Notes: generated from the letters alone by a model not told the origin. Shown: positions 1,882-36,073, counted from the first letter of the stretch. The stretch: DNA of 48,732 nucleotides from Candidatus Levyibacteriota bacterium (GCA_049519175.1 JBEKQZ010000001.1:173311-222042), one strand, 5' to 3'. Numbers and translations are program-made.

Positions 1882-2466
1882 ATGCGAATTTTAATTGCCA
1901 AAGCAATTTCTAATATTTTATCCGCGCTGGCGGTTATCGTTGAAGCAACTTTTGTTTTATCCTATTTAGGAACAAAGAATTTATGGTTGTCTTTAGAGTG
2001 GACTTTGGTATCCTTGGCGTTTATCCTTGGGCTACTAGGAATCGTTTATTATTTTGTCAGGATAGGCAAATTTTCCGACTTAGACGTTTCGACTCAAAAA
2101 CAAAGACCGCTGCTGTTTTTATTAGATTTTATTTTTGCGCTGATTTACTTACCAACCCTTTATCTACTTCATGCACCAAGAGCACTCTTTATCGGAAATG
2201 TCGCCGTTTTTGCAATCGTCATTATTTTAATAGTAGTGAATAAATTTATTAAAGCCAGTGTGCATATGGCAGTGCTATCTGGAGCGCTGACACTTTTTGT
2301 TTTTATGGGCGGACCAATTTATTTATTAGGATTTTTTTTGCTTCCGGTTTTAGCTTGGGCAAGACTCACAACCAAAAGACACACGCTGAATGAAGTCGTT
2401 ACAGGAACAGCTTTAGGAATTTTAGTAGCAGTGCTTGTGGCAATTCTCCATTCGCCTAATTTATAG
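1882..2466 (+). CDS. polytopic membrane protein, possibly PAP2-type phosphatase
   Basis: 194 aa with about 6 hydrophobic helices. C-terminal ARLTTKRHTLNEVVTG resembles the PAP2 motif R-x5-H-x3-D (here E), and SVHMA is a possible PSGH-like motif. The function call is weak. Confidence 0.5.
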   Translation: MRILIAKAISNILSALAVIVEATFVLSYLGTKNLWLSLEWTLVSLAFILGLLGIVYYFVRIGKFSDLDVSTQKQRPLLFLLDFIFALIYLPTLYLLHAPRALFIGNVAVFAIVIILIVVNKFIKASVHMAVLSGALTLFVFMGGPIYLLGFFLLPVLAWARLTTKRHTLNEVVTGTALGILVAVLVAILHSPNL

Positions 2467-3618
2467 GGGAGAAACACAGCGGAAGCCAACGTCATCTATA
2501 TTTTCCGTATTTGCAGAGGGACTCATATGGATTGTAAATGCCCCGTCATCATCGAAATGCCTCCAATTTCCCCCACGAATAAATGCATAAAGCGTTGTGC
2601 TTGTGTCGTTTAGAGCACTATAATGATAAATTCTCCCGACACCATTATTGGCATTCCAGGCCGGATTTGAAGGCCGTATCGCATCGTATCCCAAAAAAGA
2701 TCCAGTGCCATTATCGGTGATAACGCTTGGTAAAGAGCCTGGTGCAAAATCGCTTCTTGTCCATCCTAGATTCAAGACGCCGTTAGAACTTGACATAGGT
2801 TCATCCTTTCTTTCAACCTGTTGGTCAACCCATTGCCAAACATTACCGGCAAAGTCCCAAAGGATATTGCCATTAGTCAAAGCCAATGTCCTTTTCTGTG
2901 AATTTTTCCCTCCGCAAGCATTTGAGCCATCGGTGGTCGTCCCAAAACAAGCCTGGTTATCATTTCCAGCAACAAGAGCGCCTATTCCACCAGCGCTGGC
3001 ACTTGCTTCGTTGAGGGCGTCGTTATGGCCGTTGGCTAAAATTTTACCTTTTGTCCCAGGAGAAAAACCACAGTTAGTTCCATTTCTGTCGCACCAATTA
3101 TCGGGAACTTGTTCAACATTTCTGGCGATTGTCATCCACTCGTTATTGGCGATTAAATACCAGCCCTTACTTTGACAATAAGCTTCTGCGTTGTTTTGGG
3201 TATTATCAGACATTGCGATATAGGTAATCGGAAAACCTGTTTTCGTGGAAACGATTTCCTTGTTGTTTTGTCCAGTGCAAGCACAGTTTTCGCCATTATT
3301 TTTATATACTCCGGCATATCCACCCGTAACGCTTAAACCAGAACATACATCTCCGGGCTGTGGACTGAGTCCGACACTGGGGTTTGCACTATACGCGCAT
3401 TTTGCATCATATTTCATAACGCAAAAATCTTCTGTTTTATAGAGTTTATTACCGGGGACCAGAATAAAACCTGTTGGACAAGATTTTTTGGAAATAACAC
3501 TAACGTTAGGCAAAACGCGAGCATACTTATTAACCTGCCGATTATTTAATAATATGGCGCCACTGATTAAAATAATTGCCAGAAGAGATAAAAAAATTAC
3601 CGTCAATGATCTTTTCAT
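2461..3618 (-). CDS. secreted/anchored SUMF1 (formylglycine-generating enzyme family) domain protein
   Basis: N-terminal signal anchor SLTVIFLSLLAIILISGAILL. C-terminal FGE-sulfatase hallmarks GNVWQWV, RGGNW and GFRCV, with a Cys-rich middle. TGCTATAAT (3628-3636, minus) lies 9 nt before the ATG. Confidence 0.8.
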   Translation of the reverse strand: MKRSLTVIFLSLLAIILISGAILLNNRQVNKYARVLPNVSVISKKSCPTGFILVPGNKLYKTEDFCVMKYDAKCAYSANPSVGLSPQPGDVCSGLSVTGGYAGVYKNNGENCACTGQNNKEIVSTKTGFPITYIAMSDNTQNNAEAYCQSKGWYLIANNEWMTIARNVEQVPDNWCDRNGTNCGFSPGTKGKILANGHNDALNEASASAGGIGALVAGNDNQACFGTTTDGSNACGGKNSQKRTLALTNGNILWDFAGNVWQWVDQQVERKDEPMSSSNGVLNLGWTRSDFAPGSLPSVITDNGTGSFLGYDAIRPSNPAWNANNGVGRIYHYSALNDTSTTLYAFIRGGNWRHFDDDGAFTIHMSPSANTENIDDVGFRCVSPL

Positions 3619-3641
3619 CTATGGGGGATTATAGCAGATAT

Positions 3642-3693
3642 CGAATTGTGCCCTGCTGAACGTACTGGTCTAGAACCGTTTAGTCGCTATAAC
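3642..3693 (+). repeat. R-family dispersed intergenic repeat, copy A
   Basis: tcGAATTGtgccc TGCTGAACGTACTGGTCTAGAACCGTTTAGTCGCTATAAC. The last 40 nt are 31/40 identical to copy B (hand alignment). Confidence 0.65.
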
Positions 3694-3956
3694 TAAAAGA
3701 CAGCGGCGTTTTGAAAAATTGTACTATATAAAAGTGCGTCTTCTGCAGCTTTTTTCTTTTCTTCTTTGTTAAGGTGGTCAAGCTTATTTAGAAAAATAGT
3801 TAGATATGGTTCTAAATTTCTATTATCCAACTCACTTCTTCTTTTTAAAGCTTCTATGTAAAATTTCTCTGCCATTATATTAGATCCTCTAAAATACCCA
3901 ATCGCAACACGTTTCAAATCCATTGCTAATGCTCCTAAAATTTGTTTGTTCCTCAT
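3693..3956 (-). CDS. hypothetical small helical protein (87 aa)
   Basis: Track ORF. It overlaps the upstream 112-aa ORF by 4 nt (ATGA), so the two are probably co-translated. No family recognised with certainty. Confidence 0.6.
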   Translation of the reverse strand: MRNKQILGALAMDLKRVAIGYFRGSNIMAEKFYIEALKRRSELDNRNLEPYLTIFLNKLDHLNKEEKKKAAEDALLYSTIFQNAAVF

Positions 3957-4291
3957 AGAATATTTTTGAAAAAAAACTTAGTTAAATCTTCAAACCTTTT
4001 TCTTAACTCTGGGTCTTGGATTTCATTACTTGTATTTTTGTCTACTGGTCTGACATTAATAAAAGAGTTACAGTCTATTGATTTTGTTTCGATATCAATT
4101 CCTCCTCCCCAAAGATTGGATTGCTTTGAACCTTCATCTAATAAAATCTTTTCTGACTCAAAATGCCTATCTGCGCCTGCTGAGCAAATTTTTCTTTCAA
4201 CATCAATAACTGTTTTAATATAAACATCAAATAATTCTCTTAATTTCCCAATTTCTTCTTTTGTAAAAGGTTCTGATTTAGTAATTATCAT
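3953..4291 (-). CDS. hypothetical protein (112 aa)
   Basis: Track ORF. TATAAT (4299-4304, minus) lies 7 nt before the ATG. First gene of a two-gene unit bracketed by repeat copies A and B. Confidence 0.65.
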   Translation of the reverse strand: MIITKSEPFTKEEIGKLRELFDVYIKTVIDVERKICSAGADRHFESEKILLDEGSKQSNLWGGGIDIETKSIDCNSFINVRPVDKNTSNEIQDPELRKRFEDLTKFFFKNIL

Positions 4292-4360
4292 TTAAGTTAT
4301 TATAGCTCTAATAATAAAATTTTGGAAGATTACATAACTGGATACTAGCTTTAGGGTTAT

Positions 4361-4410
4361 AGTCCGTGCTTGCTGAGCATACCGGTCTGGACCCGTTTTG
4401 TCGTTATAGT
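4361..4410 (+). repeat. R-family dispersed intergenic repeat, copy B
   Basis: agtccgtgct TGCTGAGCATACCGGTCTGGACCCGTTTTGTCGTTATAGT. It is 31/40 identical to copy A and 31/40 to inverted copy F. Confidence 0.65.
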
Positions 4411-4423
4411 TTATTCTTTTAAA

Positions 4424-4451
4424 TTGACTATTTCTCACAATTTAGTATTAT
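4424..4451 (+). promoter_or_regulatory. sigma70-type promoter abutting the start codon (leaderless)
   Basis: TTGACT (4424-4429), 16-nt spacer, TATTAT (4446-4451), then 6 nt to ATG 4458. Confidence 0.55.
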
Positions 4452-4457
4452 ATAGGT

Positions 4458-4997
4458 ATGGATGAAGCCGTGGATAATCAAGAGCCTAATGTTAGACCGC
4501 GGATCACCACAACAGAGATAGACTCAGATATTCCTCTTAATTCAAATCATGCCTTGGGGGAAATATTGACATTTTTAAATCCAGATAGAAATAAACCAAG
4601 TCGGTACTATGAAAGCAAAACAGCTACTCTTTTGCAATTCGGAGGAAAACTTGCACGGATTGAGATTTATGACTTAAGTCAGTCAAGAATAACAATGGGA
4701 ATAGTTATAATGAATGTAGATAAACACATCCCCAAATTTAAAGAAAAATTCCGAATTGTTGACTTGCCTAAGAAACCAGGTGACACAACAGGTTTATATA
4801 GACAGGTCTCAGGTGTCATGCAAGAAGTTTCAAATGCCACAGGTAGAGATGTCGTTCAAAAATTTTCTACCCAAGATCCTAAAATGATTGCGTGGATGAG
4901 AACAAACGCAACGCAATTAGGTTTTACAATAAATGAGGATTATCCTAATTTAATTTCAGCTTCGCGGGTATATTTGCCAATCTCACATTCTGCTTAA
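4458..4997 (+). CDS. hypothetical protein (179 aa)
   Basis: Track ORF with a promoter directly upstream. No recognisable motifs. Confidence 0.65.
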   Translation: MDEAVDNQEPNVRPRITTTEIDSDIPLNSNHALGEILTFLNPDRNKPSRYYESKTATLLQFGGKLARIEIYDLSQSRITMGIVIMNVDKHIPKFKEKFRIVDLPKKPGDTTGLYRQVSGVMQEVSNATGRDVVQKFSTQDPKMIAWMRTNATQLGFTINEDYPNLISASRVYLPISHSA

Positions 4998-5016
4998 AGA
5001 TTGACTGAGATTATGG

Positions 5017-5063
5017 CGAATTGGGTGTACATGCTTGCTGGCTCTAGTTGATGATTTCCGAAC
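5017..5063 (+). repeat. R-family dispersed intergenic repeat, copy C1 (divergent)
   Basis: cGAATTGggtgtacatGCTTGCTGGCTCTAGttgatgatttccGAAC shares the GAATTG opening and the GCTTGCTG..TCTAG..GAAC spine with copies A and B. Confidence 0.45.
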
Positions 5064-5132
5064 TTTTCAGTGGGAGTATCCAGAGATGATTTATCAAAAG
5101 ACACAGAAATATTTACAGATGTTTAATTGAAT

Positions 5133-5170
5133 AATTGGCTCTCCGTGATGGACGACGTTAGAACCTATTA
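5133..5170 (+). repeat. R-family dispersed intergenic repeat, copy C2
   Basis: AATTGgctCTCCGtgatgGACGACGTTAGAACCTatta. The 16-nt block GACGACGTTAGAACCT (5151-5166) is identical to copy D (6117-6132). Confidence 0.65.
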
Positions 5171-5214
5171 CATGATTATTTAAAATAGAATAATTCTCTG
5201 TGAGATAAGTTAAA

Positions 5215-5243
5215 TTGACAAATATTTAATCCTGTAGTATCAT
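5215..5243 (+). promoter_or_regulatory. sigma70-type promoter abutting the start codon (leaderless)
   Basis: TTGACA (5215-5220), 17-nt spacer, TATCAT (5238-5243), then 6 nt to ATG 5250. Confidence 0.65.
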
Positions 5244-5249
5244 CGCCTC

Positions 5250-6068
5250 ATGCCAGATGCAAAAGAACAATTGAGACAACAAATCTTGCTCGCGCGTGAA
5301 CAAGAAGCCAAGAGACGTAGTGATGAGGCAACTGCTCAAGCTGAAAAAGCAGCCAGAGAAGCCGAAGAACGAGCACGAATCCCAGAATCAACTATTATTC
5401 ATGACTTGCGCATGGAGTTTAGGGATCTTGTTTTAACTAGAATTATAAGACCGTCTATGGATGCTTTGAGTGATATTCTGACTGAAGATTCTTCTACTCC
5501 CTGGCAAACAGCTCACATAAATGAAGTTGCACATTATCAAGTGTTTGTCCCTTATTATTATCACGCGGCACTCACAAACGATGATGATAGATACTCAGTT
5601 CCTGAACACATTGAAGATAACTATAGTCCTGTAGATGGTATTACTCTTGCGAACGCTGACACTATTTTATTTGCGGGATTTATCGGACGCTCGTATTATC
5701 CGCCTTTTACCACATATAATCTAGATAGATGGTCTAGAGAACTGAATAATGAATTTGATAATGACAGCTCTTACTGTATAAAGTTTAGATTTGGAAACAA
5801 GCGCCTAGGTTGCAGTCTGGCTGATTCTAGTTACTATGATGACATGCAGATTATGAGCTCGCAATGGAGCGGTGAGACTACGCCTACAATGAGATTTCTG
5901 ATTGGTGAAGGTGCGCCAGAAACCTCAGGCAGAGAACGTGAAGTGGTCAAAGCATGGAATACAGATCTTTCACGTGGTCAACGGCTAACAGTCGCTCTTG
6001 CAGCAAAGTTTAATGAGGGATTAGCATCCTTTGTTGCTCGGCAAACCCCTGAAGCTAAAAGAAGATAA
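5250..6068 (+). CDS. hypothetical protein (272 aa) with N-terminal charged coiled-coil-like segment
   Basis: Track ORF with a consensus promoter directly upstream. N-terminus QQILLAREQEAKRRSDEATAQAEKAAREAEERAR; the rest is unrecognised. Confidence 0.7.
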   Translation: MPDAKEQLRQQILLAREQEAKRRSDEATAQAEKAAREAEERARIPESTIIHDLRMEFRDLVLTRIIRPSMDALSDILTEDSSTPWQTAHINEVAHYQVFVPYYYHAALTNDDDRYSVPEHIEDNYSPVDGITLANADTILFAGFIGRSYYPPFTTYNLDRWSRELNNEFDNDSSYCIKFRFGNKRLGCSLADSSYYDDMQIMSSQWSGETTPTMRFLIGEGAPETSGREREVVKAWNTDLSRGQRLTVALAAKFNEGLASFVARQTPEAKRR

Positions 6069-6093
6069 TTCTTCCGCTTTTGCCTTTAAAGCT

Positions 6094-6140
6094 GAATTGT
6101 TGAACTCCGAGAGATAGACGACGTTAGAACCTGTTTTATT
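6094..6140 (+). repeat. R-family dispersed intergenic repeat, copy D
   Basis: GAATTGttgaaCTCCGagagataGACGACGTTAGAACCTGTTTTATT lies 18 nt from the 3' end of tRNA-Gln. Confidence 0.65.
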
Positions 6141-6157
6141 TATAAGGATAAACGAAG

Positions 6158-6228
6158 CTGCCGGACTTAGATTCGAACTAAGATGAACGGATTCAGAGTC
6201 CGCTATCCTACCATTAGATGATCCGGCA
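6158..6228 (-). tRNA. tRNA-Gln (anticodon CUG)
   Basis: Hand-folded cloverleaf from the reverse complement: TGCCGGA TC ATCT AATGGTA GGAT A GCGGA CTCTGAA TCCGT TCAT CTTAG TTCGAAT CTAAG TCCGGCA G. All four stems pair. CCA is not encoded. TGGTATAAT (6239-6247, minus) lies upstream. Confidence 0.9.
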
Positions 6229-6287
6229 ATGTATTTAAATTATACCAAATTTAAGGGTAGGTTTGCCGTTTGATATAATTGTGTGGT

Positions 6288-6536
6288 ATGTTTTATGTTT
6301 ATATTCTCCGCACTTCCGCCAATACTTTATACGTTGGGCAGACAAATAATTTAAAGAAAAGAATTAAAGAGCATCAGTCAAAAACTATTAAATCTTCAAA
6401 ATATGTTCGTAGTTTCCCGTCTTTCAAACGCGTCTACTCCGAAACTTTCAAAACCCGTTCACAAGCTCTCAAACGCGAATATGAGTTAAAGCAACTCTCA
6501 AAAATTCAAAAGGAAGATTTAATCTCAAAGAAATAA
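6288..6536 (+). CDS. GIY-YIG nuclease family protein
   Basis: N-terminus MFYVYILRTSANTLYVGQTNNLKKRIKEH is a GIY..YVG motif. Start moved from 6279 to ATG 6288 because TGATATAAT (6271-6279) overlaps the track start. Confidence 0.8.
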   Translation: MFYVYILRTSANTLYVGQTNNLKKRIKEHQSKTIKSSKYVRSFPSFKRVYSETFKTRSQALKREYELKQLSKIQKEDLISKK

Positions 6537-6599
6537 AATTTAGCAATTATAATTTATTCTGCCCAACATATAGTCTTTATTTAAGAGTATACTAGATGT

Positions 6600-6998
6600 G
6601 TGAATAGTGTCTCCGCAGGCTTAATCCTCTTAACATACAAGGGTAAAGTGCTTTTGATGCATAAGCAAAAAAGCGTCATTGACGCAGAATTGCACCCGTG
6701 GTGTTTAATCGGTGGCATTAGGGAGAAAAAAGAATCTTTCCAAGAGGCTCTAAGCCGCAGGGTACAAAAAGAAGCGGGCATCAAAATCGGAAATGTTGAG
6801 TTTGTGTCCGAGTTTTGTTACCGTGCGGAGTTAACCGACGATAATGTCAATAAAATACAACGGAAAGAACATCAACTGCTTGATTTTTTTACCCTTAAGG
6901 AAGCCGATAAACTGTTTCTTTCCAACGAAACCGCTAAATTCATCACAAAGCATAACTCATTGGTAAATCCTATAGTGCCATTGACTTACTCTTCGTAA
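6600..6998 (+). CDS. NUDIX hydrolase
   Basis: Nudix box GGIREKKESFQEALSRRVQKEAGI (G-x5-E-x7-R..E.G). GTG start 6 nt after TATACT (6588-6593). Confidence 0.75.
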   Translation: MNSVSAGLILLTYKGKVLLMHKQKSVIDAELHPWCLIGGIREKKESFQEALSRRVQKEAGIKIGNVEFVSEFCYRAELTDDNVNKIQRKEHQLLDFFTLKEADKLFLSNETAKFITKHNSLVNPIVPLTYSS

Positions 6999-7019
6999 CC
7001 TGGTATAATAGACAAAGTA

Positions 7020-7057
7020 AAGGCAGATTGAAGTAATAAATCTGCTTTCAATATTTT
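7020..7057 (+). terminator. probable intrinsic terminator after the NUDIX gene
   Basis: AAGGCAGATT-gaagtaata-AATCTGCTTT stem (7020-7048) followed by a T-rich run, tttcaatatttt. Confidence 0.55.
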
Positions 7058-7156
7058 CGATTAGTTAAAGATAATAACCACAGAAATTTTTTAGAAATCA
7101 GTATCTTTCCCCGAATCGCATTTTATTAAGCAGCTTTATTCTTTCAATCCAAAATT

Positions 7157-8344
7157 ATGTATCACAAAAGATTTTACCCAAGGCATCAACAACAAAAAAA
7201 ACGTTTTGCGCCCAAAGCTTTACCAAACCACGAATTAATGGCGGCGATCCAGGCCGTTAAAATAGTTAATAATCAGAAATTAAACGTTCCTGAAGAAGTT
7301 TTCGTTCCCAAAAACGGTTTTGCCGATTTTCAAATTGTGCAGCAACTTAAAAATAATATTGCCGCCAAAAATTATTTAGTGCCAACACCGATTCAAGATC
7401 AGGCGATTGATCAAATGCTCAACAATCGTGACGTAATTGGCATTGCCAATACCGGAACGGGCAAGACAGCAGCGTTTTTAATCCCTTTAGTCAACAAAGT
7501 CTGCTTAAATAAAATGGAAAAAGTGCTGATCATCGCGCCAACCAGGGAACTGGCTTTACAGATTCAAGAAGAGCTCAAGGATTTTTCCAAGGGCTTGGGC
7601 ATTAGAAGCGTTTTATGCATTGGTGGAATGAGTTTATGGAGGCAAAAAAATGAGTTAAGACAAAATAATAATTTTGTCATCGGCACGCCGGGAAGAATCA
7701 AAGAGCTAATTGGCGAACGGAGCTTATTGTTATCAACCTTTCACAGTGTGGTTCTCGATGAAGCGGATAGAATGGTTGACATCGGTTTTATTAACGACAT
7801 CAAATATTTTATTTCCTTACTTCCGCAAAATAGGCAGTCATTATTTTTTTCCGCAACAATTTCCGGTAAAGTCAAAGAAATCTTAAACGCTTTCGTTGTC
7901 AATCCGGTGACAATTTCGGTGGAAAAACAAGCCACGGCGGAAAATGTCGAGCAGGACGTTATCAAGGTTACTAATAAAAACGAAAAAATCGACAAACTGC
8001 ATGATTTACTCTCGCAAGAAGGATTTGAAAAAGTGCTGGTTTTCGGACGGACAAAATGGGGCATGCAAAAATTAGCCAATGAACTAATCAGACGGGGTGT
8101 CAGAGTGGCGGTAATTCATGGCAACAAAAGTCAGGGACAAAGACAAAAAGCGTTGGAACAATTCAAGACTAATCAAATTTCGGTTTTAATCGCTACCGAC
8201 GTAGCTTCGAGAGGTTTGGATATTCCGGACGTTAGTCATGTTATCAATTATGATATGCCGGCAACTTATGATGATTACGTGCACAGGATTGGTAGAACCG
8301 GCCGCGCCGGAAAACCCGGTGTGGCTCTAACCTTCGTGGAGTAA
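7157..8344 (+). CDS. DEAD-box ATP-dependent RNA helicase
   Basis: PTPIQ, ANTGTGKTAAF, PTRELA, DEAD, SAT and HRIGRTGRAG motifs, in order. Confidence 0.95.
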   Translation: MYHKRFYPRHQQQKKRFAPKALPNHELMAAIQAVKIVNNQKLNVPEEVFVPKNGFADFQIVQQLKNNIAAKNYLVPTPIQDQAIDQMLNNRDVIGIANTGTGKTAAFLIPLVNKVCLNKMEKVLIIAPTRELALQIQEELKDFSKGLGIRSVLCIGGMSLWRQKNELRQNNNFVIGTPGRIKELIGERSLLLSTFHSVVLDEADRMVDIGFINDIKYFISLLPQNRQSLFFSATISGKVKEILNAFVVNPVTISVEKQATAENVEQDVIKVTNKNEKIDKLHDLLSQEGFEKVLVFGRTKWGMQKLANELIRRGVRVAVIHGNKSQGQRQKALEQFKTNQISVLIATDVASRGLDIPDVSHVINYDMPATYDDYVHRIGRTGRAGKPGVALTFVE

Positions 8345-8486
8345 AATAAATAATTACTCAAAATTCTTTTTGTCACCTTTCAATAGCAATAATTTCTCTT
8401 TTCAGCTACAATACGTGTTGGTAATCCAGGATTAGCTAAAAGAGTACCGATTAACAAAAATCATTACGTAGTAAGGCAGCGCGCTT

Positions 8487-9503
8487 ATGCTAAAAATTAA
8501 AGACGAGGGAATAATTCTTAAAACTTCAGATTTGGAATTTGAAAATAAAGCAGTTTGTAACCCAGCCTGTATCCAAGTGGGTAAAGTTACTCACATGTTC
8601 TATCGGGCAATCGATCGTAATAATATTTCCTCAATCGGCTATTGTCAGTTAAAAAATAATCAGGTTGTAAAAAGACTGAAAAAACCGGTGCTTTTCCCCG
8701 AGCATGATTACGAAAGAAACGGCGTCGAAGATCCCAGAATAACCTTTTTAGAAGGAACATATTATCTTTTCTACACCGCTTTCGATGGGGCGAATGCCCG
8801 TATCGCTTATGCGACTAGCAATGATTTAAACAATTTTGTCAAACAAGGGCTTGTTTCCCCGGATATTACTTATGATAAAGCCAGTCAAATCTTCCGCCAG
8901 AAGCAGTTAAAGGAAGAGTATTTTATCTCGAAATTGCATTTGGAAACAGAGTTTAAGGGGCTTAATTTTTTATGGGAGAAAGACGCTATATTATTTCCGA
9001 AAAAGATCAATCAACAATTTGCTCTGATGCACCGCATTCGTCCGGACATTCAGATTATCTATTTCAAAAACTTCAAAGACCTAACGGAAAATTACTGGAG
9101 GGCTTATTTGGAAAACTTAAAAAAATACATCATGCTTAAACCGAAATTCCAGTTCGAGAATCGATATATCGGTGGCGGTTGTCCGCCTATCGAAACCAAA
9201 GACGGATGGCTTATTATCTATCACGCGGCGCAAAATACATCTCTTGGAAAAGTTTATCATGCCGGAGCTGCTCTGCTTGACCTCAAAAATCCCCTCAAAA
9301 TCTTGGGGCGGTTAAATAAACCTCTATTTTCCCCGGTAACTCCTTGGGAAAAAAACGGTATTACCAATAACGTTGTTTTCCCTACCGGAGCAATAGTCAA
9401 AGCTGGAAGACTGCATATCTATTATGGAGCTGCGGACAAGTTAATCGCCGCAAAATCTATTGACCTTAACGAACTACTGACAGAGCTTAAAAAAACCGCT
9501 TAA
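8487..9503 (+). CDS. GH130-type glycoside phosphorylase/hydrolase (beta-mannoside-acting family)
   Basis: About 338 aa. NPACIQ, GVEDPRITFLEGTYYLFYTAFDG and IYYGAADK segments are typical of the GH130/DUF377 five-bladed propeller family. Confidence 0.75.
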   Translation: MLKIKDEGIILKTSDLEFENKAVCNPACIQVGKVTHMFYRAIDRNNISSIGYCQLKNNQVVKRLKKPVLFPEHDYERNGVEDPRITFLEGTYYLFYTAFDGANARIAYATSNDLNNFVKQGLVSPDITYDKASQIFRQKQLKEEYFISKLHLETEFKGLNFLWEKDAILFPKKINQQFALMHRIRPDIQIIYFKNFKDLTENYWRAYLENLKKYIMLKPKFQFENRYIGGGCPPIETKDGWLIIYHAAQNTSLGKVYHAGAALLDLKNPLKILGRLNKPLFSPVTPWEKNGITNNVVFPTGAIVKAGRLHIYYGAADKLIAAKSIDLNELLTELKKTA

Positions 9504-9507
9504 AACT

Positions 9508-11724
9508 ATGATTACCAACCGACAGAGTAAATCTTGGATAGTTTGTCTTTCCACTTTTCCGCCACGGCAGTGCGGCATCGCTACCTTTACGGCTGATCTT
9601 ACTAACGCTATTGACCAAATGTTCGGACCATCGGTTAAATCAAAGATTGTCGCGATGAACATAACGAATATCAGTGATTTGCCTTATTCCGACAAAGTAA
9701 TTCTTCAAATAAGCCAGCCTCGTCAAGAGGACTATTTTAACGCTGCCCATAAGCTGAACCGTCTTAAAAAAGTAAAGCTTGTCAACATCCAACATGAATT
9801 CGGTATTTTCGGAGGAGAGAACGGTTCATATCTGCTTTATTTTTTAAAAGAACTGCATAAACCGGTCGTCACTACTTTACATACCGTGCTTCCGAATCCT
9901 GATGAAAAAATGCTTAACGTAGTTCGGGAGATAATGAAATATTCAAAAATAATAATCGTCATGACCCGTTCCTCAAAGGAAATTCTAGTCAGAGATTATG
10001 GGTTAGATTCCAAGCGGATTAAGATTATCCCTCACGGAATCCATCATGTTCCCCATACTACCAGCGAAAAGGCTAAGTCTAGCTTCGGATTCTCCGGAGA
10101 AATAATTCTGTCTACTTTTGGGCTGCTTGGTCCCAGCAAAGGAATAGAATATGTCATTGAAGCTCTTCCGCCGGTAGTTAAAAAGTTTCCTAATATCCGC
10201 TTCCTTGTCGCCGGCGTCACTCACCCGGTTGTTTTAGGAAATACCGGGGAAATCTACCGTAATTTCCTTACCAAAAAAGTGAGTCAACTCGGTTTAAGTA
10301 AATATGTGTCTTTTTATAATACTTATTTTGACATCAATAAGCTTCTGCAATTTTTAGAGGCTACCGATATCTATCTTTCTCCGTCCTTAAACCCTCAGCA
10401 AACTGTTTCCGGTACTTTGTCTTATGCTCTTGGTAGCGGCCGTCCGGTTATCTCTACCGCTTTTGCCCAAGCTAAACAAGACATCACGGGTGAAGTCGGT
10501 ATTTTGGTTGATTTCAAAAAACCACAGGCTTTTACTGCTGCTATTATCAAATTAATCGGTCACAATAAATTACGTTTACAAATGGGTAAAAATGCCTATT
10601 TCCGCACCAGGCATATGACTTGGGAGAATGTTGCCCATTCCTATATGAAATGTTTCTCGGAAGTTTCGCCGCAGTTAAGCTCGGGACAAAAAAAGTTGCC
10701 CTCCATAAAACTGGAACATTTGCTTAAATTGACTGATAATTTTGGGATTATTCAGTTTGCCAAACTGACCGAACCGGATCTCTCCTCAGGATATACCTTG
10801 GATGATAACTCCCGAGCCTTAATCGTGGCCGCTTTACATTATAATAAATTTAGAACTCCTGCTTCGTTAAAACTGATTCCTATCTATCTTAACTTCCTTC
10901 ACTTCGTAGCTAAGCCCGATGGCTATTTTGATAATTATGTCAATGCAAACCATACTATTGATAAACCAAGAAATATTCAGGAAAATTTAGAAGATTCCAA
11001 TGCCAGAGCGCTATATGCACTTGCTTTAGTTTCAACTACCAAACGACTCCCCGAACACCTCAAAGAACAAGCTCATTTGCTGTTTAAGCAAAGTTTCCGG
11101 AAAAGTATTACTTTCTTAGCGCCTCGCGCTATGGCTTTTTATATTAAGGCTCTTAGTTGTTTACTTTCCGAACGAAACGAGTCCGAAACTCTCGCGGTAT
11201 TAAGATATTACTGCGAGCAACTCGTCGCTTTGTATGAGAAAAATCATTCGCCGGACTGGGAGTGGTTTGAGCATATTCTGACCTATTCAAATGCTCTTTT
11301 ACCGGAAGCGCTCATCCTCGGGTATAAAATAACCGGAGAGAAAAGATACCGTGAAGTAGCTAAAATAACCTTCGATTTTTTAATTAAACATACCTTTAAG
11401 GACGGTATTTATATTCCCGTTGGTCAAAGCGGCTGGTTTCCCAAGAAAGGGATGAGACAGTATTTTGACCAACAGCCTGAAGATACTGCTGCCATCATAG
11501 AAGCTCTCAGCGCCATGTTTGAGGTAACAAACAAAAAGCATTACAAAGAGCTGGCAAACACCGCCTTCAATTGGTTTTTAGGTGATAATGTGCTTGGGCA
11601 AGTTGTCTACGATCGCACCACCGGAGGATGCTATGATGGAATTGGAGAAAAATTTATTAACCTTAACCAGGGCGCCGAATCTACCATTTCTTATCTTTTT
11701 GCCCGTCTCTTTTTTGAAGGCTAG
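9508..11724 (+). CDS. GT4 glycosyltransferase fused to a large C-terminal helical domain of unknown function
   Basis: N-terminal ~390 aa follow a GT-B/GT4 pattern (STFPPRQCGIATFTADL ... SPSLNPQQTVSGTLSYALGSGRPVIST). The C-terminal ~350 aa are helix-rich, possibly an alpha/alpha toroid. Starts 4 nt after the GH130 stop. Confidence 0.75.
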   Translation: MITNRQSKSWIVCLSTFPPRQCGIATFTADLTNAIDQMFGPSVKSKIVAMNITNISDLPYSDKVILQISQPRQEDYFNAAHKLNRLKKVKLVNIQHEFGIFGGENGSYLLYFLKELHKPVVTTLHTVLPNPDEKMLNVVREIMKYSKIIIVMTRSSKEILVRDYGLDSKRIKIIPHGIHHVPHTTSEKAKSSFGFSGEIILSTFGLLGPSKGIEYVIEALPPVVKKFPNIRFLVAGVTHPVVLGNTGEIYRNFLTKKVSQLGLSKYVSFYNTYFDINKLLQFLEATDIYLSPSLNPQQTVSGTLSYALGSGRPVISTAFAQAKQDITGEVGILVDFKKPQAFTAAIIKLIGHNKLRLQMGKNAYFRTRHMTWENVAHSYMKCFSEVSPQLSSGQKKLPSIKLEHLLKLTDNFGIIQFAKLTEPDLSSGYTLDDNSRALIVAALHYNKFRTPASLKLIPIYLNFLHFVAKPDGYFDNYVNANHTIDKPRNIQENLEDSNARALYALALVSTTKRLPEHLKEQAHLLFKQSFRKSITFLAPRAMAFYIKALSCLLSERNESETLAVLRYYCEQLVALYEKNHSPDWEWFEHILTYSNALLPEALILGYKITGEKRYREVAKITFDFLIKHTFKDGIYIPVGQSGWFPKKGMRQYFDQQPEDTAAIIEALSAMFEVTNKKHYKELANTAFNWFLGDNVLGQVVYDRTTGGCYDGIGEKFINLNQGAESTISYLFARLFFEG

Positions 11725-11738
11725 AGCTGGTTAAATAG

Positions 11739-12176
11739 CTACTCAATGGTTTGCTGGCCGAGGGATTTTCGCATGGCGGAGTCAATCACTCTTTGCCCGA
11801 CAATAATATCCTGTTTTATTTGGTTCGGGATGTGCAATTTTTGGATTTGTTTAAAAGTAAACCACGAAAATGAGGCTTTTTTAGTGTTAGGGAAAGTTTC
11901 TAGCTTTCTAACGACGGCATAATGAAGAAAATTATTTTTTTTCTTATCTTCGTGGAAATAGCTGTAAATCGAGAAAATATTTTTCGGCTTAAGCTCTAAA
12001 CGAAGATAGGAAAAGACTACCCGCTTAAATGCTTCCGCGGTTGTCTCCTTACCTAAACACTCACCTTCAAATAAGGACCATTCGGTTCCCGAATCGGCAG
12101 TGCTTGATTGTTGCAAGAGAATTTGCTGAGTCTTGGGGTGATAAAGAAATCCGCTTGCATAAAAATCCTTATGCAT
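11739..12176 (-). CDS. hypothetical protein, possibly a degenerate NUDIX fold
   Basis: 145 aa. GECLGKETTAEAFKRVVFSYLRL loosely resembles a Nudix box but lacks the REx2EE core. Confidence 0.45.
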   Translation of the reverse strand: MHKDFYASGFLYHPKTQQILLQQSSTADSGTEWSLFEGECLGKETTAEAFKRVVFSYLRLELKPKNIFSIYSYFHEDKKKNNFLHYAVVRKLETFPNTKKASFSWFTFKQIQKLHIPNQIKQDIIVGQRVIDSAMRKSLGQQTIE

Positions 12177-17763: not shown

Positions 17764-18900
17764 ATGCAAAAAATTACACTGCGGTTGTATGCGCTTTTCT
17801 ATAGAAATGTTCTCAAAAGGGTATTTTTTCTGCTGGATCCGGAATTTGTGCATGAATTCATTATTGGTTACGGAGGGAAAATGGGCAATATTAGTTTCAT
17901 CAGATTTTTAGCCGGAAAATTTTTCTTAGTGCAACATAAAAGTCTCAATCAGGAAATTGCCGGGATCAAGTTTGTAAGTCCAATTGGTCTGGCCGCGGGA
18001 TTTGATTATGAGGGTAAGCTGATGCAGATTTTGCCTGCACTTTCCTTTGGCTTTCAGACAATTGGCACTATCACTAATCAAGCGTATGCCGGAAATCCCA
18101 AGCCGCGTTTGGGCAGATTGCCCAAATCAAAATCCTTGATGGTTAATAAAGGTTTTAAAAATCCGGGAATCAAAGAGATTGTGAAAAGATTGCAAGGCGG
18201 CCGGTTTAAGACGCCGGTGGGACTTAGTATCGGTAAAACAAACTCAATTACTAAAGACATGACGCAAGCGGAGGCGATTACCGATATTGTCAGCGCTTTT
18301 AAAATCGCTGATGGTTCAAGAGTCCCTTTTAGTTATTACGAATTAAACATCAGTTGTCCGAATTTGTTCGGAAAAGTCAGTTTTTATCCACCGGAAAATT
18401 TAAAACAATTACTGCAAGCGGTTACCGCGCTCAAATTAAAAAAGCCGATGTTTATTAAAATGCCGATTGTTAAAACGGATTACGAAATCAAAAAAATGCT
18501 CGATGTCATAATTCAATTTAAAGTTGCAGGAGTAATTTTTGGTAACGTTCAAAGTAACAGAAAAGACAAAATGTTAAATCAGGACGAAGTCAAAAAATTT
18601 CCGGTGGGGAATTTTAGCGGAAAACCGACCGAGCAACGCTCCAACGAACTAATTGCAATGGCCTATAAAAAATATGGGAAAAGACTTGTAATAATTGGTT
18701 GCGGTGGAGTGTTTAATGCTCAAGACGCCTACAAAAAAATTAGATTAGGAGCCAGTCTGATTCAATTAATTACGGGCTTAATTTTTGAAGGACCGCAACT
18801 GCCTGCGCAAATTAATTTGGAACTGCCGGAGCTTTTAAAACAGGACGGCTTCAAAAATATCTCCCAAGCCGTTGGCGCCAACTTCAAGTTGCGTTCTTAA
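17764..18900 (+). CDS. pyrD: dihydroorotate dehydrogenase, class-2-like architecture
   Basis: LLDPEFVHEF N-terminal extension, GLAAGFDYEG, GNPKPRLGRL, NKGFKNPG, ELNISCPN, GNFSGKP, GCGGVF, FEGPQL. Start set to ATG 17764, 6 nt after TATAAT (17752-17757). Confidence 0.9.
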   Translation: MQKITLRLYALFYRNVLKRVFFLLDPEFVHEFIIGYGGKMGNISFIRFLAGKFFLVQHKSLNQEIAGIKFVSPIGLAAGFDYEGKLMQILPALSFGFQTIGTITNQAYAGNPKPRLGRLPKSKSLMVNKGFKNPGIKEIVKRLQGGRFKTPVGLSIGKTNSITKDMTQAEAITDIVSAFKIADGSRVPFSYYELNISCPNLFGKVSFYPPENLKQLLQAVTALKLKKPMFIKMPIVKTDYEIKKMLDVIIQFKVAGVIFGNVQSNRKDKMLNQDEVKKFPVGNFSGKPTEQRSNELIAMAYKKYGKRLVIIGCGGVFNAQDAYKKIRLGASLIQLITGLIFEGPQLPAQINLELPELLKQDGFKNISQAVGANFKLRS

Positions 18901-22596: not shown

Positions 22597-22622
22597 GGTT
22601 GGGCTCCGTGGGATAGACGACA
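22597..22622 (+). repeat. R-family dispersed intergenic repeat, copy E (partial)
   Basis: ggttGGGCTCCGTGGGATAGACGACa. CTCCG + GATAGACGAC matches copy D at 16/19 positions. Confidence 0.5.
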
Positions 22623-35648: not shown

Positions 35649-35741
35649 TATAACCCTCTCCAATACTTCTTGTCTCGCAAATATATCAAACTATATCATC
35701 ACTTAAGACACCCTTTTTATACTGTCTCATTTGTCTCATTT

Positions 35742-35920
35742 AGCCTCAAAAGCGAGACACCGCTATAATGATATAATGGGTCTAGACCGTTATGCTCAGG
35801 GAGATTGGATTCGAACGGTCTCAAATTCTACATCATAGCTTAAGTATTTTTTATTCAAATCACTAATAATTTAAAGCTAAAGGTTCGAGCCTCCCGGATG
35901 GGTGGTCTATTTTTGAGGCT
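35742..35920 (+). other. 179-nt element bounded by a perfect 10-bp inverted repeat; candidate small RNA or MITE-like unit
   Basis: AGCCTCAAAA (35742-35751) pairs with TTTTGAGGCT (35911-35920). Inside are TATAAT (35764-35769), an 8-bp stem AGACCGTT/AACGGTCT (35784-35791 / 35814-35821), and T-loop-like strings GGATTCGAAC and GGTTCGAGCC. Confidence 0.35.
35762..35801 (-). repeat. R-family dispersed intergenic repeat, copy F (inverted)
   Basis: The reverse complement CCCTGAGCATAACGGTCTAGACCCATTATATCATTATAGC is 31/40 identical to copy B. Confidence 0.6.
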
Positions 35921-35929
35921 ATATTTCCC

Positions 35930-35988
35930 GAGTACCGCCAGCAGGAGTTGAACCCGCGATTTCCAGCTCCGATGGTCGTTGCCATCGG
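35930..35988 (-). pseudogene. tRNA-like 3' fragment (hairpin + T arm + acceptor 3' strand) lacking a 5' half
   Basis: Minus strand: CCGATGG-caacga-CCATCGG agctggaaat GCGGG-TTCAACT-CCTGC TGGCGGT A. No complementary ACCGCCA exists between it and tRNA-Glu, which starts at 36001. Confidence 0.5.
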
Positions 35989-36000
35989 GAACGATCTTTG

Positions 36001-36073
36001 TGACGCTACCGGGATTCGGACCCGGAATTTCTAGGATGAGAACCTAGCGTCCTAGCCGTTAGACGATAGCGCC
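36001..36073 (-). tRNA. tRNA-Glu (anticodon CUC)
   Basis: Hand-folded: GGCGCTA TC GTCT AACGGCTA GGAC G CTAGG TTCTCAT CCTAG AAATT CCGGG TCCGAAT CCCGG TAGCGTC A. All stems pair (one G-U in the acceptor). CCA is not encoded. Confidence 0.92.

Follow-up and report, generated by a model that had tools for sequence, protein, structure and literature searches.

The 48,732-nt stretch of DNA analyzed here, in the following called the window, covers positions 173311-222042 of contig C1 in the genome of a Candidatus Levyibacteriota bacterium (genome G000; 849 kb in five contigs, ~40% GC). On the 3' side of a gene for tRNA-Gln(CUG), at about positions 3642-6160, genes are interspersed with short co-oriented repeats designated A, B, C1, C2 and D. 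The initial annotation had likened this layout to the outcome of serial site-specific insertions at a tRNA locus or to a cassette array. The locus is a real, recently active, tRNA-anchored stack of cassettes, and we consider it probable that it represents an accretion island built by repeated site-specific integration. Three observations carry this view: an exact empty site in a sister strain, conserved arms on both sides of the exchange point and a tRNA-specific geometry that recurs across genera. In the following, other labels beginning with G denote genomes of relatives, L numbers denote related contigs or loci, and contigs C1 to C4 are distinct from repeats C1 and C2.

An exact empty site in a sister strain

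Other assemblies of the same population were found by exact-protein look-up. The arrangement of the window, that is the filled form, is carried by four other records. Two independent records, L170 (Logan SRR35552088) and L171 (JGI 3300051094, a 153-kb contig), lead from the gene for a DUF5674 protein to the GIY-YIG gene beyond the tRNA within 212 nt. They are without window positions 4376-6160, 1,785 nt that hold the units with the 179-aa and 272-aa genes, and are ~100% identical to window positions 2600-4375 and 99.9% identical to 6157-12000. Their junction reads ...TTTAGGGTTATAGTCCGTGCTTGCTG/CCGGACTTAGATTCGAAC..., with the DNA left of repeat B joined straight to the antisense strand of tRNA-Gln (the slash marks the point of exchange). 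In the window, the corresponding sequences are ...GTGCTTGCTG/AGCATACCGGTCTGGACCC... at B and ...GGATAAACGAAGCTG/CCGGACTTAG... at the tRNA; in short form, ...TAGTCCGTGCTTGCTG/CCGGACTTAG in L170 and L171 stands against ...GCTTGCTG/AGCATACCGG in the window. The overlap of the two blast segments is precisely GCTG (window 4372-4375 and 6157-6160). A very recent event has therefore either inserted the 1,785 nt or precisely removed them. Four nucleotides, the last bases of the tRNA, served for the exchange, which took place exactly at the start of the family-wide conservation of fam1, one of the repeat families described below. The comparison of synteny in relatives that had been proposed initially thus places the breakpoint exactly at the boundary of repeat and tRNA, and with precisely the 179-aa and 272-aa units missing it supports serial site-specific insertion at a tRNA.

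It follows from the junction in L170 and L171 that in repeat B the DUF5674 unit contributes its right arm and the newcomer its left arm, with GCTG between them; the empty site proves B to be an insertion junction. Repeat A is built in the same way (…GCCCTGCTG/AACGTACTGGTCTAGAACC…) and is identical in L171, which marks it as the presumed older junction of the same kind. Relative to tRNA-Gln, A is oriented like the fam1 copies of other genera. For repeat C1 the certainty is lower. It has GCTTGCTG in common with B. The other arm of C1, GCTCTAGTTGATGATTTCCGAAC, is also present after the conserved right arm in L108 (genome G126), with 19 of 23 positions identical; on these grounds C1 is the probable junction of units 2 and 3. 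These two units have been seen absent only together. Several contigs end at the repeats. Branching paths bring assemblers to a halt, so that further variants are suggested at these places, the alternative partners of which were not recovered: L166 and L169 start at 5021, at repeat C1, L180 ends at 5155, inside the C2 core, and L167 and L168 end at 6136, just beyond the D core.

The assemblies differ from the window in additional ways. Positions 1400-2600, comprising the 3' half of gltX, the gene for a 194-aa membrane protein and the end of a SUMF1-like gene, are only 65-72% identical to L171:2850-4050; this patch looks like an allelic replacement by homologous recombination. In L167 (1-1077), L168, L178 and L179 an insertion sequence (IS) of 1,077 nt with a 332-aa rve/DDE transposase and imperfect terminal inverted repeats is present at 4419-4424, where it separates repeat B from the promoter of the 179-aa gene and has produced a target duplication of ~5 bp. 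It is an ordinary IS insertion beside B and no cassette boundary. The tRNA-Gln(CUG) gene is inverted relative to its neighbors between G000 (6157-6228) and G004 of the same genus (L012:5439-5510), and in a third variant (L173/L174:1-150) the 3' end of the tRNA adjoins a piece of the beginning of the GIY-YIG gene in inverted orientation, and the T-arm has three substitutions. The tRNA gene itself has been flipped.

Organization of the island

On either side of the locus lie gltX (585-1880) and the GIY-YIG gene (6279-6536). Between them follow, in this order, the genes for the 194-aa membrane protein, a 385-aa FGE/SUMF1-like protein (minus strand), an 87-aa and 112-aa pair (minus), the 179-aa protein (plus) and the 272-aa protein (plus), and tRNA-Gln(CUG) (minus). 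The promoter-like boxes of unit 2 were read directly from the sequence. The features of the island and two stray repeats elsewhere in the window are as follows:

2461-3618, minus strand: gene for the 385-aa secreted FGE/SUMF1-like protein, outermost gene of the variable interval; borderline match to Pfam FGE-sulfatase (E = 4.5e-5)
3642-3693, plus strand: repeat A, presumed fam1 junction; GCTG at 3655-3658, then fam1 arm AACGTACTGGTCTAGAACCGTTTAGTCGCTATAAC; nhmmer E = 1e-13
3659-4375, minus strand: unit 1, 717 nt; overlapping genes for the 87-aa protein (3693-3956) and the 112-aa DUF5674 protein (3953-4291)
4348-4375: conserved right arm of unit 1, GCTTTAGGGTTATAGTCCGTGCTTGCTG, which ends unit 1 and is kept in other genera
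4348-4410 (initially given as 4361-4410), plus strand: repeat B; right arm of unit 1, GCTG at 4372-4375, fam1 left arm of the inserted element
4376-5040, plus strand: unit 2, 665 nt; fam1 arm, promoter-like TTGACT-17-ATTATA, orphan 179-aa open reading frame (ORF) at 4458-4997, end ...TACATGCTTGCTG
5021-5063 (initially given as 5017-5063), plus strand: repeat C1, probable junction of units 2 and 3; GCTG at 5037-5040, then third arm type GCTCTAGTTGATGATTTCCGAAC
5041-6160, plus strand: unit 3, 1120 nt; TTGACA-17-TATCAT, orphan 272-aa ORF at 5250-6068, fam2 copies C2 and D at the sides
5133-5170, plus strand: repeat C2, fam2; core GACGACGTTAGAACC at 5151-5165; nhmmer E = 2.5e-10
6094-6140, plus strand: repeat D, fam2; core at 6117-6131, 17 nt from the tRNA-Gln 3' end; nhmmer E = 6.5e-12
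6157-6228, minus strand: tRNA-Gln(CUG), the anchor (ARAGORN and Rfam); its last four nucleotides, CAGC, are GCTG on the plus strand (6157-6160), the exchange point
22597-22622, plus strand: repeat E, stray fam2 copy; degenerate 3' part with ATTATAATTT replacing GTTAGAACCT, no tRNA nearby; nhmmer E = 2.3e-10
35682-35801 (initially given as 35762-35801), minus strand: repeat F, long form of fam1; stray, no tRNA-Gln ahead; nhmmer E = 2.4e-13

Unit 3 ends at the tRNA with ...GGATAAACGAAGCTG. The tRNA-Gln gene had initially been placed at 6158-6228; it is present there, with one more nucleotide and on the minus strand. In repeat F, the 118 nt at 35682-35799 are 93% identical to contig C1:451447-451563 (blastn).

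The repeats belong to at least two families

All copies named in the initial annotation exist at or near the positions given there and exceed chance, but they make up two to three families instead of one degenerate repeat. A joint alignment of the seven copies has a mean column identity of 48% and splits into two groups. The first, fam1 (~40 nt), comprises A, B and F as well as contig C1:451522-451565 and C1:452400-452433, both on the minus strand (nhmmer E = 1e-13 to 2e-3). The second, fam2 (~35 nt), comprises C2, D and E along with copies at contigs C1:1452, C1:295438, C2:180292 and C3:45765 (E = 6e-12 to 4e-4); the identical 15-mer GACGACGTTAGAACC is contained in six of these seven. The block shared by C2 and D was confirmed and extends over 23 nt at 91% identity, the 16 identical nucleotides included. 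Repeat C1 fits neither nhmmer model; one of its arms is the one shared with B, and the other, GCTCTAGTTGAnnATnTCnGAAC, recurs in another genus (L108). Information profiles computed from 46 fam1 and 74 fam2 copies from many genomes reveal sharply bounded conserved cores of ~35-40 nt, TGCTGAGCATnCCGGTCTAGACCCnTTnnnTCnTTATAGC for fam1 and TGCTCCnnGnnATGGACGACGTTAGAACCTATTT for fam2, and family-wide conservation of fam1 begins exactly at GCTG. The GAATTG initially seen as the usual opening of the repeats does occur in A, C1 and D but is located outside the conserved core.

A scan of the window against Rfam yielded two tRNAs and no match for a repeat family. Repeats A, C2 and D do not form a stable DNA fold (z between -1.3 and +1.1 relative to shuffles), while B has a modest imperfect dyad (z = -2.4); ungapped dyad symmetry around the junctions stays at the null level. 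A small RNA, a terminator or an attC hairpin was thus rejected, as no stable structure is present save the modest one in B. Likewise, features of repetitive extragenic palindromic (REP) sequences or miniature inverted-repeat transposable elements (MITEs) are lacking: there is neither an inverted partner nor a hairpin, and the five to seven copies per genome are tied to two tRNA species. By eye, fam2 resembles the antisense 3' half of tRNA-Asn at 16 of 26 positions with one gap.

These data bear on two further explanations. The repeats could be regulatory or RNA elements such as promoter-operators, terminators or small RNAs rather than recombination sites, an idea to which we assign a very low probability. 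The other strand of fam1 does contain a TATAAY box, 23-82 nt upstream of gene starts in four of five copies in G000, and fam2 often follows stop codons. On the other hand, the repeats neither match Rfam nor fold stably, their orientation tracks the tRNA and not the flanking genes, the breakpoint between strains falls exactly at the motif edge, and fam2 corresponds to the coding tail of recombinase genes, as detailed below. A promoter-operator on the other strand of fam1 (TATAAY plus GGTCTAGACC) had been entertained as the main explanation and was dropped because of the empty site; the fam1 arm may have a secondary promoter role.

Even further from what we can accept, and close to untenable, is an integron-like array with the repeats as attC-type sites that are folded single-stranded for an IntI-type integrase. 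Co-oriented short repeats between mostly single-gene units with genes in either orientation would fit, and GTTAGAA in fam2 resembles the GTTRRRY core. Against this stand the missing hairpin, the absence of an inverse core (RYYYAAC) upstream as read from the sequence, the absence of an IntI-like gene in G000 and four array-bearing relatives, the presence of a separate promoter for each unit, the anchoring of the arrays at tRNA 3' ends and the length of the conserved cores (35-40 nt as opposed to 55-140 nt for attC). A cassette array of the integron type therefore fails on every feature tested.

Repeats and tRNA geometry in related genomes

A pattern of 18 fixed bases with up to two mismatches was used for fam1, with the reversed pattern as control. 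It gave 66 matches in 37 of 121 family genomes against two in the control, often as co-oriented clusters of two to four, and within G000 the nhmmer models recovered five copies of fam1 and seven of fam2. Exact or clustered fam2 copies also exceed the control (six versus none in G000, six versus one in G001, and five versus none in each of G002, G130 and G064), and the flanks of fam2 outside the search pattern are conserved beyond chance as well. The fam2 arrays are co-oriented and have unrelated genes in either orientation between the copies. They reach seven copies in 8.5 kb in G004, where some of the genes look like pyrD and one for a NUDIX hydrolase, seven to eight copies in about 6 kb in G130 and about 19 copies in roughly 21 kb in G015.

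The two families are associated with different tRNAs. A tRNA-Gln gene (CUG or UUG) lies ahead of fam1 in 12 of the 13 loci with a tRNA in reach and is antisense in 11 of these 12, and tRNA-Asn lies ahead of fam2, likewise antisense, in six loci. The right arm GCTTTAGGGTTATAGTCCGTnnTTGCTG recurs in conserved form in G077, G076, G088 and G126, which belong to four other genera; its partners there are fam1, C1-type or fam2-like arms, and the real tRNA takes their place in L171. With such varied partners, the arms behave as interchangeable half-sites. The linker between C1 and C2 is not conserved in a similarly spaced pair in G076. In viral contigs, fam1 has no match and fam2 has 72 single matches, which is chance level; one with good flanks is found in a contig of 52% GC without a recombinase nearby.

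It appears unlikely to us, though less so than the other alternatives considered here, that the repeats are relics of old integrations and that present gain and loss proceed by homologous or microhomology recombination, for example after natural transformation. This would agree with the lack of a recombinase in the window, with the many degenerate or stray copies such as E and F and with the copies at contigs C2:180292 and C3:45765, which are stable and syntenic in G000 and G004; in addition, canonical serine integrases would not stack elements. However, homologous recombination needs far longer identity than 4 nt, and the exchange in L171 occurred at 4 nt of identity, exactly where fam1 conservation starts and the tRNA ends. 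Moreover, the arms are conserved across genera while the cargo is not, which speaks for selection on the sites.

Another site in the window also contains tRNA-derived sequence. Beside tRNA-Glu(CUC) (36000-36073), positions 35878-35962 (minus strand) are an 86-nt copy (89.5%) of contig C1:406118-406202, consisting of the last 31 nt of tRNA-Glu(UUC) and 54 nt of its downstream flank, and a T-arm-like stretch lies further on at ~35802-35826. Both look like relics of integrations at tRNA-Glu.

A probable link to large serine recombinases

The initial statement that the window is devoid of a recombinase gene was borne out, and ORF and Pfam analysis of positions 2461-6160 revealed neither a recombinase nor a replication gene. 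The genome-wide search that had been recommended led to a large serine recombinase (LSR) beside the other tRNA-Gln gene of G000. The gene for this 443-aa protein (contig C1:438139-439467) is situated 98 nt from tRNA-Gln(UUG) with the junction ...CCTGCTG/CCGGG, and two fam1 copies follow on the same strand 13-14 kb beyond it. In other genera, homologues of this small recombinase are encoded at distances of 100-250 nt from the genes for tRNA-Gln, tRNA-Asn, tRNA-Lys or tRNA-Ser. An empty counterpart of the tRNA-Gln(UUG) island was not found in four genomes of the same genus, and G000 does not contain an LSR gene at tRNA-Asn.

A second line of evidence concerns fam2, which varies like coding DNA in the frame L-[RK]-x-[ILMV]-[DE]-D-[VI]-R-T-[YFW], with codon-like alternations of the types CTC/CTG/TTG, CGN/AAG and NTN. 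In G072, a 5'-truncated ORF with clear similarity to LSRs ends with ...NLLKILDDVRTFLSNIY (in short, ...LLKILDDVRTFLSNIY) and its stop codon within a fam2 copy. Full-length recombinases with confirmed Resolvase, Recombinase and Zn ribbon domains from G015, G072, G007 and G001 end with ...LLRD, ...LWLRD, ...LLRDQDSNLEP and ...QLRG, respectively, and their stop codons lie inside the antisense strand of genuine tRNA-Asn genes. LSR genes of relatives stop likewise in the antisense strand of tRNA-Gln, His, Ser, Trp, Arg and Glu. One and the same recombinase tail, ILNYADNQL.., is continued by the real tRNA-Asn in L063 and by fam2 in L048; the two sequences part right after GCTCC. Judged by these endings, fam2 appears to be the last ~12-17 codons of some LSR genes. 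In G015 a recombinase gene is fused to tRNA-Asn and followed by a fam2 array on the same strand, and in G002 a recombinase gene resides inside the fam2 array. Some fam2 copies carry 25-nt insertions with stop codons. A translated micro-ORF or leader peptide was rejected as an explanation for fam2, as descent from recombinase gene ends accounts better for the codon-like variation.

Several observations can be added on these coding ends. In L062, L063, L067, L069, L075, L078-L081, L087, L089-L091 and L093, the last 4-20 codons and the stop codon of the LSR gene are tRNA antisense sequence (examples of such tails are ...LDSNQNKRIQSPLSYH and ...WRRGWDSNPR, each followed by the stop), and such an overlapping tail would necessarily change upon excision. 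In G000, the fam2 frame is that of the upstream plus-strand ORF in four of four cases, and at contigs C3:45744-45790 and C1:295414-295460 a single stop codon (TAA and TAG, respectively) separates the ORF from ..LRGIDDVRT..; the agreement in frame is either chance (1 in 81) or may be a trace of cassette joining. A coding fragment of ~45 aa, 47-62% identical to the C-terminus of the recombinase ORF of L070 (..INAFQDLRYIGELRQRWNEIKKLQ..), recurs in the fam2 arrays of a number of genera, in some cases immediately ahead of a fam2 copy, at these sites:

L017:1268-1396
L049:13324-13479
L052:8948-9082
L053:6108-6224 and 17792-17911
L055:4375-4506

The type of recombinase deserves particular attention. 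Serine recombinases act with a 2-bp crossover and tyrosine integrases with an overlap of 6-8 bp; since identity at the exchange point is only 4 nt, a serine recombinase fits better. That the island consists of one or several classical tRNA-targeting elements moved by a tyrosine integrase, with the repeats as attL and attR cores, is accordingly improbable in our view. G000 does encode three tyrosine recombinases, one of them (contig C1:459929-460369) near a tRNA cluster, and most tRNA-anchored islands in the literature, among them 910 of 937 tycheposons, depend on such enzymes. Not only the 4 nt shared at the exchange point speak against it: the repeats are not copies of tRNA 3' ends, two of the three proteins are Xer-like and have counterparts in every relative examined, the PF00589 matches in G000 and four array-bearing relatives are neither near an array nor IntI-like, and fam2 represents the coding end of serine recombinase genes.

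A proposed route of integration

The accretion island may have formed in the following way. Recombinase-less elements of 0.7-1.1 kb, each with one gene or a gene pair and its own promoter, would recombine at the last four bases of the tRNA (GCTG, plus strand) and leave the tRNA intact. Older elements would thereby be shifted outward by newer ones, and at each internal junction GCTG would be preceded by the older element's right arm and followed by the left arm of the newer one. The left arms would be the repeats noticed initially, namely fam1 in A and B, a third type in C1 and fam2, the type that marks tRNA-Asn islands in relatives, in C2 and D. The enzyme would be a large serine recombinase acting in trans; genes for such enzymes adjoin or overlap tRNA 3' ends in antisense in this bacterial family. 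Catalysis of the exchange by such an enzyme is the most likely solution on the evidence of crossover length and gene ends; we further infer that circles are the mobile form of the units and that each of the three units came in on its own.

A number of points weigh against this proposal. The candidate recombinases are encoded only in trans, none of them with a link to this island, the distribution of the small-recombinase family agrees only loosely with that of fam1, and a recombinase ORF that ends in fam1 was not found. Canonical serine integrases are not known to recombine attP with a site that is already occupied, and stacking in tandem would therefore call for a relaxed enzyme or a different route. 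Neither the D junction nor the predicted circle junction was matched in metagenome scans, though the searches may exclude this population. With respect to the repeats, the fam2 15-mer with up to one mismatch has about 70 matches and its reversed control also about 70, and single inexact fam2 matches therefore prove nothing; in the arrays L129 and L057 the tRNA is in the opposite orientation; and fam2, an arm of the tRNA-Asn type, nonetheless brackets the 272-aa gene as C2 and D in a tRNA-Gln island. The far end of the SUMF1-like gene does not exhibit a recognizable arm. Finally, local alignments of fam1 and fam2 with all 44 tRNAs of the genome were no better than with shuffled sequences; the repeats were therefore rejected as "false tRNA halves" by sequence, and the term can be used for them only in a contextual sense.

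Cargo genes

All ORFs between the repeats had initially been regarded as orphans. This holds for the 179-aa and 272-aa genes, but the 112-aa protein belongs to DUF5674 (E = 9e-22). The DUF5674 and 87-aa pair has a paralogue at contig C4:33725-34325 (73% identity at the DNA and 84% at the protein level) and homologues in many relatives; it constitutes a widespread conserved module in this bacterial family. The flanks of these homologues and of the copy on contig C4 contain neither a tRNA nor fam1. Among 193 other family genomes, the 179-aa protein has one weak partial match (G132, E = 3.9e-6, 49 residues), and the 272-aa protein is without homologue both there and in a large protein collection. 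Except for two weak PHROGs matches of the SUMF1-like protein (E = 1.2e-4 and 3.8e-3), both without known function, no cargo protein had a match in PADLOC or PHROGs. Among 40 relatives, the SUMF1-like gene is without DNA match; it is missing from the same locus in G004 and G001 of the same genus and is present in the sister strain L171. It could represent the oldest cargo and counts only tentatively as a unit.

Comparison with known systems

Tycheposons of Prochlorococcus are tRNA-adjacent islands in streamlined genomes in which successive integrations push older elements outward (Hackl et al., bioRxiv 10.1101/2020.12.28.424599). They contain att-derived repeats of partial tRNA sequence, scattered remnants and integrase fragments, and 910 of 937 tycheposons (97%) use integrases of the tyrosine type, with a minority of large serine recombinases (bioRxiv 10.1101/2020.12.28.424599). 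They are the closest published case, being likewise anchored at a tRNA that stays intact, growing outward and having repeats between the elements. Like them, the island described here lies on the 3' side of an intact tRNA and is polymorphic for presence and absence exactly at a repeat. Partial tRNA copies were not found between its elements, which share only 4 nt with tRNA-Gln. In contrast to tycheposons, the arms of the Levybacteria are conserved non-tRNA sequences of 35-40 nt with 4 nt of identity, most units measure 0.7-1.1 kb and have one gene without an integrase or a replication module, and the host belongs to the candidate phyla radiation (CPR).

The closest mechanistic analogue are the composite islands of staphylococcal cassette chromosome elements (SCCmec/SCC) in staphylococci. 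The CcrAB and CcrC large serine recombinases insert SCC elements of 3-60 kb at the 3' end of rlmH (orfX) and leave the gene intact. Both systems share tandem elements and co-oriented direct repeats, and many SCC elements are without a recombinase of their own and are served in trans. The target in our case is a tRNA and not a protein gene, and the repeats of SCC are copies of the target end and not a distinct arm. In Streptococcus thermophilus, integrative and conjugative elements (ICEs) and cis-mobilizable elements (CIMEs) accrete at the fda 3' end via a tyrosine integrase. Tandem accretion and integrase-less, att-bounded elements that can be mobilized in trans are common features, while the tyrosine integrase, the protein-gene target and the much larger size of the elements are not. 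Integrases of archaeal viruses of the Sulfolobus spindle-shaped virus (SSV) type are tyrosine recombinases with attP inside the integrase gene, which is split in two on integration. There, too, the attachment site overlaps the recombinase frame and a tRNA, and the product differs between the free and the integrated state, whereas in the Levybacteria only the last ~10-20 codons of a serine recombinase would be exchanged. With integrons, sedentary chromosomal integrons and clusters of attC sites lacking integron-integrases (CALINs), the island has in common mostly single-gene units between co-oriented repeats, cargo that is variable among close relatives and arrays that may occur without an adjacent integrase. 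It is set apart by the lack of IntI, attI, the promoter Pc, an attC hairpin and R and L boxes, by the units' own promoters, by tRNA anchoring and by a serine recombinase as the candidate enzyme.

To our knowledge, members of the CPR (Patescibacteria) have tiny genomes with few recognized mobile elements, and our search for literature on integrons or serine recombinases in Patescibacteria returned nothing relevant. The value of the locus lies in the exact empty site together with the link to serine recombinases. More tentatively, and with somewhat less than even confidence, we propose that Levybacteria run a serine-recombinase-based gene capture which would do the job of an integron. Single-gene, promoter-bearing mini-elements with little beyond a ~60-bp attachment site, made of a conserved right arm and one of several interchangeable left arms, would be inserted, stacked, removed and swapped at the terminal bases of tRNA-Gln and tRNA-Asn by recombinases encoded elsewhere, whose C-terminal tails would be rewritten by each event. 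Mobilization in trans, if it indeed occurs, would place the mini-elements among the smallest known integrative elements with cargo, and they could then serve as a natural source of compact pairs of serine recombinases and att sites. With an exact empty site, arms of 35-65 nt, a 4-nt exchange point and candidate recombinases, the locus offers a concrete, testable mechanism for gene gain in the CPR.

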